From Chrysomallon squamiferum (lineage: Eukaryota; Animalia; Mollusca): a stretch of DNA of 64,000 bases. Made by a program: the position numbers and the translations under genes. The notes under the pieces were generated by a model. That model saw nothing but the letters and a program-made list of their open reading frames with translations, was not told the origin of the DNA and did not search any database. This document shows, in pieces, positions 2,647 through 24,986 of the stretch; positions within the stretch are counted from its first letter, which is position 1, and each line of letters opens with the position of its first letter. The DNA lies in the NCBI GenBank assembly GCA_012295275.1, contig CM022679.1:28520001-28584000 (forward strand). The letters are read 5' to 3'.

Positions 2647-3032
2647 AAATACATTTAAAATAAAATATTGTGAACATAACTGAAAGACGTATCACCAGGA
2701 AGTCATGAATACTTTAAATGATAGTAGCTTGTATTGTTTAGTAAGTTAATTTATTTCACGGTTTTAATAAGACAACTGCAGTGTTTGACTTAGAAGAGAA
2801 GTGATAAAACTTTACAAAATGCCGTTGTTTGAAGATAATCGTCCAAACATCTTAATCACGGGGTCGCGTTTGATTAATTGTACTTGTGCATGTTGAGGGA
2901 AGTGTGAAGACAGCGATAAGGCAGGCTTGAGCAGATAACATCACCCTAACACGGGCGATATCGGAATTCAACGAGGAATCTAGGGGTGGGTCTAGGGGTG
3001 GAGTCCAGGATGAGGACGTTCAGTAGCGCCTA

Positions 3033-3563
3033 ACAGGGGACTTGTTTTACAGGGACTTGTACTACTGGGGACTTGTACTACTGGGGACTTGTACTACTGG
3101 GGATTTGTACTACAGGGGACTTGTACTACAGGGGACTTGTTTTACAGGGGACTTGTTTTACAGGGGACTTGTACTTCTGGGGACTTGTACTACAGGGGAC
3201 TTGTTTTACAGGGGACTTGTTTTACAGGGGACTTGTACTTCTGGGGACTTGTACTACAGGGGACTTGTACTACAGGGACTTGTACTACAGGGGACTTGTT
3301 TTACAGGGGACTTGTACTACTGGGGACTTGTACTACAGGGGACTTGTACTACTGGGGATTTGTACTACTGGGGACTTGTACTACAGGGGACTTGTACTAC
3401 AGGGGACTTGTACTACTGGGGATTTGTACTACAGGGACTTGTACTACTGGGGACTTGTACTACAGGGGACTTGTACTACTGGGGACTTGTACTACTGGGA
3501 CTTGTACTACTGGGGACTTGTACTACTGGGGACTTGTACTACAGGGGACTTGTACTATAGGGG
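3033..3563. repeat. Minisatellite, 16-nt unit (A/T)GGGGACTTGTACTAC, about 33 copies
   Basis: Directly visible tandem units with TTTT/TACT variants and occasional 15-nt units. Explains the three overlapping ORFs at 3042-3598. Confidence 0.95.
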
Positions 3564-4589
3564 AGTCCCTTCGTAAAACTGTGCATTTTCCTTTCTAACC
3601 AAATAATAGTGATGATAAAAACTGGAAAGTACGTTTTCACTCTGGAGTACTATGTTGTGATACTCGTATTTTTATGAAATATTACAGTTAGATAATCATT
3701 CTGTCTCACTCTCTGTGTCTGTCTGTCTGTCTGTGTCTCTGAATCTCTGACTATATGTGTCTCATACACACACATATATATAGATAGATAGATATAGATA
3801 TATATATGTATATACGTGTGTCTGTCTGTCTGAAACTCATTATCTGTGTAAATATCCTAATTCTCGCAATCAGCGCCACTAAAAAACAAAACTGTTATAT
3901 GAATGAGAAAAAAAAAAACGACGTTTGATTGCTGTTAATACTGTCACAAATCTACAACATGATGAGAAATAAATGAAACCTGGGGCTTGGTTCACGCGGT
4001 GAAGCGGACAGTGGTGTAGACGTTGTTATCGCGTCTTACAAATCGCCAAACTTCGAGCTTTCCTGCCACATTGCGGCGTAAATTGCTTTTAAACATTTAC
4101 AATAAACACGAAATAAACACACAAACCGTCGTGCTGTGTTGTGTGGGGGGATAAGTGGGGCACTCGACAGTAGCGCTGGGGGATGGTATGTGGTCTACTG
4201 ACTTGAAATTCAATGACATCCGCCTCAAGTGGAATGCTTCGTAATTCTTTTTTTTTTTTTTTTTTTAAATTTGTTCTTTTTATCAAAATTTGTTTTGTGA
4301 CACAGAATAGTTGGTACTTGAAATCTTCGGGATTGGCAAAAACATTGATTTATCCTGACGTTTTTCTTACCTTTTTTTTAATTTCTGTTTTTCAGTTACG
4401 TCTTTATCTGCATTAATGTTTTTTTCTGTTTACTTTAATTTTTAGAAAACATAATGGAGTTTCTGTCGTGTTGAAAGGTTTTGATAAATTTGTCGATTCA
4501 TTAAATAATTCAATTATTAACTGCTCAACAAGCGTTTTTAGCATCAATTTTCTTTCATTCTCAGAACTCTGAAAGTACTCAAATACCCC

Positions 4590-12168: not shown

Positions 12169-12357
12169 CGTGTAAATGCAACCTTCACGCCAGACAGTGT
12201 AGGTTCAATCTGGAGCTGTACCAGCTGTCTGGGTACAAGAGTGGCGGCGTCTGTGTGCGCTGTCGTCACAACACGGCAGGCAGGAACTGCCACTACTGCA
12301 AGGAAGGCTTCTACCGAGACCGTACTAAACCCATGTCTCACCGTAAAGCTTGCAAAG
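12169..12357 (+). CDS. NTN1: Netrin LE2 (laminin-EGF V-2) exon, copy A
   Basis: ttgcag|CG...AAAG|gtacgt, 189 nt, phase 1-1. Translates (A)[62 protein letters not shown], the netrin LE2 signature with 8 Cys. Candidate branch point CTCAC at 12143-12147. Confidence 0.93.
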
Positions 12358-12418
12358 GTACGTTCAGTGTTGTGAGAACCGCTTTTCACTCGCATGTCTT
12401 TTCTTGTTTCTTTTCCAG

Positions 12419-12607
12419 CTTGCAATTGTAATTTGCATGCACGCCGATGTCGCTTCAATAGAGAGCTGTACATGCTGTCGGGCGGGAGGAGTGGTGGGGT
12501 GTGTCTGGGCTGTAAACACAACACAGCCGGCCGCCACTGTCACTATTGTAAAGAAGGCTTTTATCGAGACTCCAGCAAGTTGATCACTGATCGCAGAGCT
12601 TGCAAAG
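12419..12607 (+). CDS. NTN1: Netrin LE2 (laminin-EGF V-2) exon, copy B
   Basis: ttccag|CT...AAAG|gtaggc, 189 nt, phase 1-1. Translates (A)[62 protein letters not shown], very close to vertebrate netrin-1 LE2. Confidence 0.95.
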
Positions 12608-12785
12608 GTAGGCGAGGCCTCGTGTCTCCTCAGCGGGTCCCTGGCGTCAACCCGTCGTACTTGTAGCTAGAAGATAGTTCCTAGATTAGAGCCTTTTCTC
12701 TTTTGTTTTACCTTATTAGCATGCTAGCATGTTAATCTACCTCTCACACACACATGTACATACTCGTACACATACCACCCATATG

Positions 12786-12819
<34 letters not shown>

Positions 12820-13269
12820 TATATCTACTTACAAATGAACACATACATACATACATACATACATACAAAAACGTTATATTTAATTAATGTTCCTTCTGAA
12901 TGTTGTTCTTGCTGTCTACATAGCAACAACAACAACATGATGATGATGATGATAGTGAAATAATTATAATCATGATGATGATGGTATTATAAGCTATTCA
13001 AAAGTATCATTAGGCACACAGTTTAATGTTCTGGTATCTGCTATTAGATAACAAAAAATTGAGTAGTAGAAGATATTCTTATCAGAGGAAACTGTATTAG
13101 TTCCATTAACAACAAAATATCCTCTCCAAGCACTTTCCTAGACTGAATGAAACATCATAAACCACAGACTCTAAAAGTACTCGTCTTTGGCTTGCACGTG
13201 CAGCTGAGGTACTTTACACGCGAGATATATTTATCCATGATGAATTTTCCACTGACCGAGCAGTCTGTA

Positions 13270-13384
<115 letters not shown>

Positions 13385-15940
13385 AGCGTACAGGTTAGTT
13401 GAGAGGACAAATAACAGACTGTTATGTTACGGAAAAGAGAAAATTAAAACGTAAGACTGACAAACACAACACCTGCTGGTGTATCTGGTATCAGAAGACT
13501 TTTCTGCGTCTCGTACAAGTCGAGCGTTATGATACAGCCGTTGTCATAAAGACGTCTTTCATAAAAACTCAAATAAAACAACAATTACGTCAAAATCCTA
13601 TATGAGTCGGAAAGCGTGATACCTTTATAGAGCAGATCGTTTTCTTCAAACAAAAATGACCAGGACAGTGGCACTGAAGATGATATCTCTTGAATGAATT
13701 ACATTCTTACGCTATTCGGATTTCAAAGGCAGGAAGTGCCCGAGTTGTCGTTCTTACTAGACTGGGCTACATGTCATAGACTGTCTAATTATTATGCACT
13801 CGAGTTTCGGGTCGCGATACGCGCGGTCTGATGTCAGTGTGATGGGTGAACTTTGTTTTTGTGGATGATATCGAATACAGTTGCACGTGTTTCTGAAACA
13901 AACGTTTTACTTATATATACATTTACGGTTGGCTGTGGTTAAGAAGCGGTTAGGGTTAAGTGTTAATTTTTGAAACCGAAATCTTTGTTGTACATCTGTA
14001 AATTAATATTTACGTCGTCATTAGAAGGAAACTTTAAACAGTAACCCGACGCCATCGGTTAGCGCTAATGACATATCACGTTAACAAGTGAATGAGCGAG
14101 ACGAGTATAAACAGACTTGTTTATTGTAACCAGTGAAACAAACTGTATACATATCGAATTGAGGTTAGAGTATAGGATCCAACCTATTTATTGTTGTTTT
14201 ATTCCGTTTTATTTTAATTAATTTATTATATGTACGTGAACGACGATTATGTCCTTGTTAGTCTCTGAATGTGTCCTTAAATGTCAATTTATAATAGACT
14301 GAATTTTAGTTAATAAATATCACGAGTAACACCCCGTTGTGTGTACAAGGACGCTGTGCCGAATCCAGAACGCTTCATAGAACGTTGACTGGAACACAAT
14401 ACCAGACAGGCTCGTGAAAATGCTGTTTTGACGTACACTGTGTTCCTCGTCCTCTCTGTTTTAAAAAGAATTAAATGAATTATCCACCGTGGCCCTGACG
14501 AAGAAGAAAGACCACCGAATATAACAAACAGTTTTCTAATCATTTAGAAATTTATTTCAACCGTTTTTTGTCTAATTACTTACACATGTGTTATAAAGCT
14601 TACAGTATATCATGACATTTTATCTAAGGAAAAAACATTATATCTAAGGAAAAAAAACATTTTCTTAGACAATAAGCGTTTCTAAATGCGAATTAAGAAG
14701 AAAGAAAACAGAAAAGCACGCAGTAACTAAAACACTCTGAGAAAGCCCGGCTTAGCCAGCCACCCACCCGATTCCCCGTAGAGTCTCCAATTACGTAATT
14801 AATCCCAAAGATGCCTTCGTACAAAGCCACTTTAAATAACGATCAATATCGTGCGGGTTTGTTTGCGGTTTGTCACGGGAGAAAAAGAAAGAATGCAGCT
14901 CTTTAAGAACAGCAAAAAACCGTACATCTTTTTATAACTGTTATTCTGTAATAATATCTCTCATCGTTACATATTCCGCAAATCTACTGCGAACTTAAAT
15001 TGAAAACGGTTCGTTCGACTGGTTTGGTGTGAGACACACCTTAAGATTATGACTCAGTGACGGTAATTTGGTGAACAGACGAAATTCATAGAATATCATT
15101 TTATCTCTGATTCACGCTGCAGACTGCTCTGCCTCCTGGGACGTCCACTTGCCGCTCTGCTTACGATACAATCTCAATGAGGAATTCAAGTTTCTATTTT
15201 TATTAAAGCAATCCAGCATGAGAACATTATTAAGTTTAGGAATCACCAGTTTAATTACACGTGTCATGTCTTTCAAAGCAGATAGAATAAATCACTTGGA
15301 AAGTTTTTTACCTTAGAATCTAGACTCATGTTCTGAGACGTGGTGGGTCGCAGGAACAGTTCTCCTCTCTGCTCCAGCTAAATCATTTCACTCCAGCCTA
15401 AACCCCCATGTCTAATTTTAAAAAAGACATTTATCACCATTCCCTGTTTATGGGTAAGTGTATGTGAGAGATCCCATTCTGCTACTCGATCACACTAGTC
15501 AAATGTACAGCAACATCGGGTTTCCTTTCTTGTATCATTAGAAAGAAAATAAAACGTTTGATTATATAACAGCCATTAATATACAAATCTGTTAGTGACA
15601 ATAATAATTTATAAACAACAAATATATTTTATTTTAATTATTCACCATTTTTGACAATTACAAATATTCATTCATTATTGTTGTAGATGTTGTTGCTGTT
15701 ATTGCTGTTGTTGCTGCTATTATTGCTATTGCTGTGTTTATTGTTATTGTTAATATTTTGTTATGAATAAAACAAGATGTACGACAGATTCTGTGATAAG
15801 AATTCAGAACATTTGATTTGCTGGTTAATTTTCTGTCATCAGCTACTGACGGCTCACGTTGATTTTAATACAAAATGTACATTTGTAGTTCCCATCATAC
15901 CCAGTTATATAGCTATGTTTGGAATGGGAAATAGCCATGG

Positions 15941-15997
<57 letters not shown>

Positions 15998-16017
15998 TTA
16001 TCTCAGTTTTATTATGA

Positions 16018-16200
<183 letters not shown>

Positions 16201-16311
16201 TAACAGTTGTAAAAATCAGTAACCTATGTGTGTGAACGCCTTTTTTCTTGCATGTGTGTGGACGTGTATGTGAAAGTGTCAGAGGGGGAAGAGATAAATA
16301 GATAGATAGAT

Positions 16312-16402
<91 letters not shown>

Positions 16403-19013
16403 CGCTGTGATAATAATAAAAACATAGAAGTCAGATACAGTGAAAGGGTATTGTAAAAGGAAAAGAAATCTGTGAAGACTAACATACAATAACAAGACAT
16501 GACAAATTAGAAAGAAGACAGGAAAGGTATTTCGTGTTCAAAGAATAAAAACAGAAACAGTGAGAGATAAACGTTAAAAAACTAACAGAGAAACAGATAC
16601 AGGTAACGAGAATAGACTTAGAATGAAAGTTATCTGGTACGTAACTTAAACAAGGAAGTATGAAAAAAAAAGAAGGGATGGTTAAAGATGGTGATAGAAA
16701 AAACTGTAGAGATATGAAACAGAAGCGATTGTGAATGATTGTGAAGGGAACTTGAAACTACGTCTTGTGAGAGGTGAAAGAGTGAAGGAGGAGAGATCGC
16801 AAAGATCGCTTTCAGAGGAGAGTGGCTGAAAAAAAATGTTCTTGGGAGGGACACTGTTAAAGAGGTTTCAGGGGAGGGAGAAAGGTATTACTGAGGGTGT
16901 AATAATGATGTCAGGAGGCAGAGAGAGAAAGAGAGAGAGAGAGAGAACGAAAGAGTGACAGATAACAATGATAACGATGCTGATGATGATGTATTTTTTA
17001 ATTACTTGTGTAAATAGTCGAGGCCAATGTTCAGTGACTGTTGTGTTTCAGAAATGAAGAAAGAAACAAATTCTACAGGTTCAAAAGTTGGAATTATTTT
17101 CCGCGCTAAAGAGAAAGAAAGTAATTGCGGCATGTTCACTTTGCATGATACACTCGAGTTATTTAACAGTCACAGTGTGCTCTCACATTCTGTCTCCGCA
17201 AGTCGCCGGATCATTTCCGATCTGCGCCGTTCGGCTCATTTCGGAACTTGTCACACTGTCTTGTTCATTGACATCTCTTTTTTCACACTGACGTTGTTCG
17301 TGAACGAGACTAGTGAGCATTTGTTCGGACTAATTTCTTGCACGAAATGCGGATCGAAAATAACATTTTTACTTTCTTTGTAAAAAGTTCTTAATAACTT
17401 TACAAGGATGTTACGTTTTTTTCGGTTCTGATGTTTATTTAATGTGAATCGTGTTGCAAGGCATGTTAAAATGTACTCGTGTTAAAACGAACATAATGTT
17501 TAAATATAACTGTAACTGATTACAAGCAACCAATCTTTTCTATCAAAAATGTATGACAATACGGTAACATACGGGGAAATACCATTTTTCCTTTCTTCTT
17601 CTTCTGTTGTGTGTATGTACGTGATTGAGTGCGTGTCACTATTTTCGTACAGGTGTGAGTGTGCAGGATTTCATATTTTATTTGGTTGATAACCTGGAAT
17701 ATTTGTTCAATCATTTATTCATTAATGTTGAAAATAAAGCTACATGAGTTGACGTCTAGAAACAGAAAACAACGAGCTGAAAATGTACAAAATAAATTTA
17801 CCTGTTTTCACAGGTTCAGTTTGACATCAACCTCACTGAGACTGAATTTAACCGAGAGAAAAAATACATATAAATATTTTAATTAAACAAATAAGTAAAG
17901 ATACTGGTAACATTGAAACCAAATTTAGCCATTTTCTTAAAATACTGAAAAGGATTTCTACTACTTTTCCTCTTTTTAACATCATCATGACCATCATAAT
18001 TAATTTCCTCTGTTTTGTCGTGTTTATTTCTTTAATTTTCGAATTACTTTTTCATCGTCGTCACATTTTCAATTTCGGATTATCCATTCCATCTCTAATT
18101 TTATTTCTTCTTCTCCTTTTTATTTATTTATTTTTATTTTTATTTTTTTCACTGTCAAATTGGCTTAATTTGGTTTTTAAACTGCTCAGAAAACAGACGC
18201 ACAACGAACCAATATTGACCAACACCACGCATGTCCAAACTTTATTTAGCGACGTCATTCTATTTTCATACTTTTCCTGACGTCATTTTAACCATGTGAC
18301 GTCACGGTATTCTAAAATTTAACAACAATGTTGTGCATGTAAAGTTTATTTTTTGACTAACCAGAAATCTAAGTGTCACAGTTTTCACACGCAAGATACG
18401 TTGTAAAAGCATGAGTGTGTTTGAAAAATACTTTCACGTTGTTACTAACGTCTCCGTTCACGAAATACTAAAACCATCTACGTTTATCAGACTTGTTCTT
18501 GTCAGACATCTTAAATCTTTTGTCTCATAACGTTACAACATTGATTTTAAAATTACCGTTTGAAAAATGAAAGTTTTGAATTTTAATTAAATATCATAAA
18601 TTGTAAATTTGGCATTTATTATAAGTAAATAAGTACTTGAAATTTATTTAGACACTTTAGCTGCGGAAAATATTTATAAAATTGTTATAAAAACGTAAAT
18701 AATTAAATATGTTATGTACTGAACCTGTGTGTGTGCTTTTTTAAAGCTAAATCTGTCGAGGTTAAAGATTAACTAGTGTTATGTTATGTGTAGTCATTCA
18801 AGTAAAGCGTTATTGGAATAACATTAGACTTTGTTAATACCAGTGGGGTTCATCACGAATAGACTGCTTTTCATAAATATCTTACTCTCACACGCAATAA
18901 AGACATCGTACGATTTGGTATCATTTAGCATATTATCTGCTGCAATATTGTATTTAAAAACAAATATAAACACTATTCAAAACAAATTTTTTTATATATT
19001 TTTTTAATTTCAG

Positions 19014-19058
19014 AAATTCCAAAACCAACCACCACAAGACCGCAACCCAAACCATCAG
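19014..19058 (+). CDS. NTN1: Netrin Pro/Thr-rich linker exon between LE3 and the NTR/C345C domain
   Basis: tttcag|AA...TCAG|gtaagt, 45 nt, phase 1-1. Translates (K)IPKPTTTRPQPKPS and continues the 'APCIKIP' motif typical of netrins. Confidence 0.85.
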
Positions 19059-24911: not shown

Positions 24912-24986
24912 GTGATGGTGGATGTAGAAAATGTAAAAAACGAAGTCGACGACTCAACATTAAGAAGTTCTGTAAGAGAGACTTTG
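24912..24986 (+). CDS. NTN1: Netrin NTR/C345C domain, first exon
   Basis: ttgcag|GT...TTTG|gtaagt, 75 nt, phase 1-1. Translates (G)DGGCRKCKKRSRRLNIKKFCKRDF, matching the netrin 'C..CK......N.KK(Y/F)CK(K/R)D(Y/F)A' pattern. Confidence 0.92.

Follow-up and report, generated by a model that had tools for sequence, protein, structure and literature searches.

Exons that arise by tandem duplication and are then used one at a time are well known. The IIIb and IIIc exons of FGFR are mutually exclusive and originated by such a duplication. The exons 4a/4b of OGDH and, in C. elegans, 5A/5B of egl-15 and 9/10 of let-2 are likewise pairs of homologous exons, equal in length and phase, of which each mRNA carries one. 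In molluscs, the isoform pair AOX-A/B of the oyster alternative oxidase reportedly results from alternative splicing of a duplicated exon, although that gene is unrelated to the one described here and encodes a mitochondrial enzyme. Here, we describe an exon pair of the same known splicing mode; unlike in OGDH, egl-15 and let-2, it swaps the repeat with which a secreted guidance ligand binds its receptors. Secreted netrins of the netrin-1/UNC-6/NetA-B family share the order LE2-LE3-NTR with our locus. They differ from it in that the LE2 exon (also termed V-2 or EGF2) is duplicated here, which was the case in none of the listed arthropod and deuterostome proteins (a comparison of protein records). 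The choice between attraction and repulsion by netrin is usually ascribed to the receptors of the responding cell (discussed in PMC10084454, PMC10871540). The gene contains two intact tandem LE2 copies and, taken as a whole, the data make it probable that these are spliced either/or, trace to a single spiralian origin, and encode a pair of secreted netrins in which the UNC5/heparan-sulfate site is remodelled.

We analysed a stretch of 64,000 nt of the Chrysomallon squamiferum genome (hereafter the window), which contains the 3' half of the gene (Table 1). The N-terminal LN and LE1 exons lie beyond its limits. The LE3 start proposed in the initial annotation was confirmed. The NTR (C345C) domain is present after LE3, so that LE2, LE3 and NTR follow one another in the usual netrin order, and the same stop codon is reached in an open frame with either LE2 exon. 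The A form assembled from the window is identical at 255 of 261 residues to the C-terminal part of the netrin of Gigantopelta aegis. Except for the duplicated exon, the gene is an ordinary member of the netrin-1/UNC-6 family in every feature tested. Its other introns within the window span 2.8–5.9 kb. Abalones have an optional 25-residue linker after LE3, and the isoforms of limpet, mussel and scallop vary in length by 13–21 residues. The linker stretches that we tried had no match in the window (16196-19013, between LE3 and the following exon). A minisatellite-like repeat at 3014-3595 of the window forms an open frame made up of repeated units.

Table 1. Features of the netrin gene in the window (positions counted from the first nucleotide of the window).
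Feature	Position	Strand	Remarks
Netrin LE2 (V-2, EGF2) exon A, upstream copy	12169..12357	+	189 nt, phase 1-1
A-B intron (spacer)	12358..12418	+	61 nt, normal GT-AG ends
Netrin LE2 exon B, downstream copy	12419..12607	+	189 nt, phase 1-1
LE3 exon, common downstream exon	16046..16195	+	150 nt
Linker exon	19014..19058	+	45 nt; joined to LE3 in RNA contig X3
Exon with start of C-terminal NTR (C345C) domain	24912..24986	+	75 nt
Last coding exon of NTR domain, including stop codon	27816..28144	+

Re-inspection of the sequence confirmed the initial description of the pair: the two exons have the same length and phase, each is preceded by AG and followed by GT, both encode eight Cys without a stop codon, and the separation between them is as stated. 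The 17 residue differences were also recovered, and correspond to 17 of 62 whole codons (the earlier count over 63 included the split codon). At the DNA level 60 of the 189 nt differ, of which 34 at third codon positions, and 24 of the 45 residues shared by A and B are encoded by different codons, in line with the many synonymous differences reported before. Between the two copies, the NG86 estimates were 0.225 for dN and about 2.4 for dS, the latter near saturation. Read-through of the spacer meets a stop codon. We found no third LE2 copy in the window. Comparisons of orthologous exons, the check suggested for each copy, gave dN values far below dS for both A and B in pairs of loci, e.g., 0.028 versus 3.2 for B and 0.035 versus 1.4 for A. 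The proposal of an old duplication with both copies under purifying selection is thus supported, and the age of the pair reaches back to rotifers (see below). Judged by these substitution patterns, both copies are conserved under selection.

The identity of the repeat as a netrin LE2 was upheld by full-length matches of exon A to the LE2 of netrin-1 and of UNC-6. All 62 residues of exon A aligned with the solved netrin-1 LE2 (E 6e-33); matches to UNC-6 (E 7e-30), netrin-4 (1e-18) and laminins (8e-13 or weaker) were progressively less significant. The best named matches of exon B were also netrins. Exon A is the same as the A isoform of Haliotis at 56 of 62 residues.

Sequences matching the locus were present in four public runs (X1–X4), of which three are RNA from one study with a contig depth of about 2.4. 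In X1, a 303-nt contig covers exon A exactly and joins LE1-A-LE3, thereby skipping B: the loose end on its 3' side corresponds to the start of LE3, and the one on its 5' side, translated by hand, to the end of LE1 as in protein P0178. The X2 contig contains A and 12 nt of LE3 without B, and the X3 contig ends at 12357. Exon B was not covered in any of these three RNA runs, and no A-B joint was listed among their contigs, at the same depth of about 2.4. At such depth the contigs show that B can be skipped, but say nothing firm on the use of B, and a minor B isoform is compatible with the missing coverage. The initial annotation had proposed to count junctions; those from LE1 to A and from 12357 to 16046 were seen, those of B were not seen at this low depth, and no listed contig joined 12357 to 12419. 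In X4, a 1387-nt contig spans 12100-12700 unbroken, with both exons and the spacer, which speaks against an artefact of joining. As X4 is possibly the source sample, it does not count as independent support. Matches of 33 nt at 16084-16116 in X2 and X4 depart from the window further on; we took them for another gene and disregarded them. The X3 contig keeps 25 nt of intron before LE3 (16021-16195) while being joined to the next exon; it looks like a part-spliced precursor from which the LE2-LE3 intron is removed late.

The RNA contigs could be explained if B were a silent, intact relic in this species and A alone were used, since only A appears in the three RNA runs and the single listed protein of Gigantopelta aegis, the closest named relative, is also an A form. 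We consider this very improbable. Exon B is the same at 55 of 62 residues as the abalone (Haliotis) B isoform and at 56 of 62 as that of Littorina, while synonymous sites between A and B are near saturation, and a close relative (P0015) keeps B at 98%. The RNA depth is also low.

Isoforms of relatives indicate how the pair is used. We collected isoform sets using exon B and the A isoform of abalone as queries, complemented by three cluster look-ups. In all 20 of the 20 pairs of equal-length isoforms, which come from 19 species, there are 9–21 differences inside LE2 and none outside. The species are three abalones, Patella, Littorina, Biomphalaria, four oysters, three scallops, two mussels, the nemerteans Lineus and Tubulanus, the brachiopod Lingula and the annelid Owenia. 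Among the 66 spiralian RefSeq proteins listed, whose isoforms are model predictions, a single LE2 is present in 65 and two copies in none, the remaining protein being truncated. A single LE2 was also seen in 16 of 16 full-length proteins from short Logan/JGI contigs, which probably represent transcripts: 12 are of B type (nine with the oyster B exon), three of A type, and one is identical to the scallop A form. The expected layout with three LE repeats is therefore found both in the LE1-A-LE3 contig of this animal and in 65 of the 66 RefSeq proteins. The suggestion of either/or splicing is supported by the B-skipping contig, the 20 swaps restricted to LE2 and the lack of any RefSeq protein with both copies, and we regard the mutually exclusive use of A and B as very probable.

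The opposite situation, i.e., frequent inclusion of both exons in a four-LE netrin, would be compatible with the length of the exons, a multiple of three that keeps the frame on inclusion, and with the normal ends of the A-B intron. Furthermore, A is joined directly to B in seven GenBank/UniRef models (P0007, P0008, P0010, P0168, P0299, P0401, P0402). None of these shows a RefSeq accession, and we read them as probable gene-finder output. Besides the RefSeq and transcript-like proteins, of which none among 66 and 16 has both copies, the X1 and X2 contigs of this animal skip B. Hence, a four-LE netrin is most unlikely to be a frequent product of the locus.

The duplication was not found outside Spiralia in our control set. 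Among 88 listed proteins from ten arthropod and deuterostome clusters none had two LE2 copies; 59 had one and 29 were fragments without LE2, and each gene has a single LE2 sequence in these protein records. In a tick model (P0014), a stretch of LE2 recurs in identical form before the model breaks down; we put it aside as a separate artefact or recent copy. Isoforms that lack LE3, encoded by a 50-residue exon, occur in amphioxus, horseshoe crabs and a spider (P0342, P0345, P0377, P0378, P0331). Deletion of LE3 is reported to abolish netrin-1 dimers (PMC13759497).

Mutually exclusive use requires some means of avoiding double inclusion. Since 189 nt is a multiple of three, a frameshift cannot remove transcripts with both exons. 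The last adenosine before the terminal AG of the A-B intron is at intron position 37, so by sequence any branch adenosine lies 37 nt or less from the donor, and the best match to yTnAy predicts it at position 31. A distance between donor and branch site below 50 nt is the steric criterion applied to human exons (PMC5740500, PMC7969005), yet C. elegans is reported to splice introns as small as about 40 nt (PMC4165533). These small introns, together with the longer A-B introns found elsewhere, leave a steric block plausible but uncertain, and we give a slightly better than even chance to the idea that the short intron prevents double inclusion in this species. The initial annotation had suggested a check of the conservation of the short spacer, and the outcome was mixed. 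Short spacers recur, with 49–79 nt at five other loci (L001, L002, L003, L007, L035) and 45–81 nt in eight read-through ORFs, among which short spacers are over-represented. Spacers of 108–188 nt occur in some lineages: further read-through ORFs have 108 and 129 nt, P0022 has 181 nt (counted by hand) and bdelloid rotifers have 169–188 nt.

Bdelloids may use another device. A duplex of about 30 bp is predicted to pair their A-B intron with the intron after B, thereby bracketing exon B. It was found in four of the four tested loci with an intact A (L045:1701-2210, L049, L051, L012), with z between −7.4 and −8.4 and none of 40 shuffles as strong, and was missing from all four loci with A decayed or absent (L043, L048, L034, L022; z from −2.0 to +1.3). 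The bdelloid loci are kin, and the absence of the duplex may thus reflect one loss event. The search for an intronic duplex in the window gave z of −1.3 to −1.9 at best, and intronic pairing at the five short-intron loci named above never reached z below −2. The feature that enforces exclusivity appears to differ between lineages: a short intron would probably block double inclusion in this animal, whereas in bdelloids, with their long A-B intron, the predicted duplex would loop out B instead. RBFOX-type GCATG motifs occur three times near the exons of the window, against 0.53 per kb across it, and are also seen after B in bdelloid copies with intact A. Their positions are not conserved across short-intron loci, and we did not use them as regulatory evidence.

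The differences between A and B can be placed on the known LE2 structures. We numbered LE2 via named residues, with 342 to be added to a position for the chicken number. In the crystal structure of netrin-1 with UNC5B, LE2 touches Ig2 of the receptor through its loop-b helix; chicken R350, R351 and R374 were the largest contributors to heparin binding in simulation, K360 was called critical, and H383, which corresponds to position 41, is a dimer contact (PMC13759497). Positions 9, 18 and 32 are chicken R351, K360 and R374, i.e., named residues of the heparin or UNC5B site (PMC13759497). The heparin residues reported for UNC-6, including R355 and R378, map to positions 8, 9, 11, 32, 58 and 59 (PMC10871540, PMC13617976). 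The initial annotation took LE2 as the UNC5/heparan-sulfate site and part of a DCC site; EGF2 also serves DCC binding (PMC10871540, PMC13617976). Its emphasis on repulsion has to be qualified: UNC-6 EGF2 is reported as necessary for both dorsal and ventral guidance (PMC13617976), and LE2 is thus not a repulsion-only module.

We counted residues in 28 complete pairs, leaving out four of 32 in which A was truncated. Position 14 is basic in 23 of 28 B exons, three of 28 A exons and none of 19 outgroups. Position 18 is L, M or I in 21 B and two A exons, and Lys in 16 of the 19 outgroups. Asn occupies position 39 in 22 of the A exons and one B exon. At position 9, 13 A and three B exons have Gln, against a basic residue in all 19 outgroups. 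Neither A nor B keeps the whole outgroup pattern. The heparin motif of the window reads Arg-Gln-Cys-Arg in A and Arg-Arg-Cys-Arg in B. Leu, the residue introduced by the mouse K358L mutation (PMC13759497), stands at that site in 14 of 27 B sequences. Positions 9, 14 and 18 are within the loop-b segment (chicken 350-366), where the A/B pattern holds across phyla. By these comparisons, the A/B divergence is located at the putative binding site, and it is on this location that the two receptor-binding surfaces suggested in the initial annotation are based. The differences in charge are small. Over the six heparin positions, B is more basic in 15 of the 28 pairs, less basic in three and equal in ten, in a set where kin pairs are not independent. 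In loop-b, B carries the higher charge in 18 pairs and A in five, with five ties; no p-value is given since the pairs are related to one another. The net charge of LE2 in this animal is higher for A than for B.

We propose that B tends to keep the Arg-Arg motif while the basic residue of the loop-b helix would have shifted from position 18 to 14, the trend in A being loss of the second Arg and replacement of His39 by Asn. With these shifts, the isoforms would differ in UNC5 and heparan-sulfate binding, and we somewhat favour a true difference in binding to one or the other. The isoforms might instead bind receptors alike, the exons being mutually exclusive and the pair being kept for LE2 dimer or filament formation, for stability or for regulation of expression. 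No binding role is given to the diagnostic position 39 in the relevant parts of the structure papers; at position 41, the dimer contact, several gastropods have Asn in exon A and His in exon B; the ten ties in the heparin counts would also fit, as would the loss of one copy in several lineages. Against equal binding, positions 9, 14 and 18 fall in the loop-b that contacts Ig2 of UNC5B and their pattern holds across phyla, so we think this explanation possible and rather unlikely. A functional difference need not be a clean split between attraction and repulsion, which is one possibility among others given the roles of EGF2 in DCC binding and ventral guidance.

To date the pair, we scanned metagenomes and found 58 netrin loci, of which 18 have tandem LE2 pairs in genomic sequence. 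Bdelloid rotifers carry the pair; exon B of one such locus (L045) is 100% identical to the netrin of Adineta steineri. A tree built from 64 spiralian LE2 rows places 31 of the 32 B rows, rotifers included, on one branch (98/92), in a data set of just 62 columns for which the bootstrap had not settled. This branch holds exons of rotifers, annelids, nemerteans, brachiopods and molluscs, including exon B of the window. Adding 19 outgroups, with eight near-duplicate rows left out, kept 27 of 28 B rows together (SH-aLRT 90), and a constraint holding all 28 together was not rejected (p-AU 0.84). The exception is the fast-evolving pair P0013, whose copies group with each other; this tandem pair (P0013/L035-L042) has a 79-nt intron. 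Of the two clades for which the initial annotation suggested a test, B exons do group with B exons across phyla, and A exons are not separated from the outgroups as a resolved clade. The B-type exon is the downstream copy in 12 of the 13 pairs of known order (leave-one-out scoring). No cephalopods or flatworms appeared among the named matches.

These results point to one duplication before the split of rotifers and lophotrochozoans, in an early spiralian, and we consider a single origin shared with rotifers to be likely. Several independent duplications in molluscs, annelids and rotifers would be conceivable given the 62 columns of the tree, its unsettled bootstrap and the P0013 copies that pair together, and convergent tandem exon duplication is documented (PMC9741552). 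They are improbable in view of the nearly uniform order of the copies, the single branch with B exons of five phyla, which persisted with outgroups, and the constraint that was not rejected. We take the split of rotifers and lophotrochozoans to be more than 500 million years old.

In the scenario that we favour, the LE2 exon would have been duplicated once, in tandem, in an early spiralian. One copy would enter each mRNA and both proteins would keep LN-LE1-LE2-LE3-NTR, the A form being seen in this animal and the B form deduced from relatives, with a choice between them that would be made by cell type or stage. The most specific version adds to a switch older than the split of rotifers and molluscs, enforced by a short intron in molluscs and some worms and by the duplex in bdelloids, that one isoform favours UNC5-dependent repulsion or tight binding to the matrix while the other lacks this preference. 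We put this forward tentatively, with doubts that it is right in its entirety.

A switch at the UNC5/heparan-sulfate site on the side of the ligand, present in at least five spiralian phyla, would tune the cue itself; flies, nematodes and vertebrates appear to lack it. If the most specific version is true, the cell that sends the cue sets the sign or range of netrin. A and B would also provide natural variants at the residues highlighted by structural work, and the pair could serve as a rare genomic character that joins rotifers with lophotrochozoans. In snails, oysters and annelids, netrin probes and knockdowns may have targeted two isoforms at once. The isoforms are already in automated annotation: the RefSeq entries “netrin-1-like X1/X2” of molluscs, nemerteans and Lingula are the A and B forms, as unlabelled gene models. 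In the open literature, the scope of our search, we found no description of a duplicated netrin LE2 exon, and the statement that no earlier account was known held within this scope. “Netrin” and “NTN” had no match in the main text of two human surveys of mutually exclusive exons, and the alternative-splicing passages of a review on netrin evolution make no mention of the LE2 exon pair (PMC10084454).

One of the two copies was lost in several lineages. Some bdelloid netrin copies (L034, L043, L048, L022-L025) have only B, with A containing a stop codon, truncated to a remnant or absent, and other bdelloid copies retain both exons; the former may result from the sorting of isoforms between duplicated genes. 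At L009:107-1048 and L019:489-1505, LE1 is followed by a B-type exon with no detectable A in between, and about 15 loci share this B-only type. Conversely, the clam-like L046 and L047, which come closest to Ruditapes and Dreissena, carry a divergent exon of A type, with no B in the 1.5 kb that follow. The proteins P0192, P0317 and P0322 also belong to this divergent clam-like group. Finally, the full-length netrin frame of L005:67-1869, whose LE2 is A-like, is uninterrupted and represents a transcript or an intronless copy.
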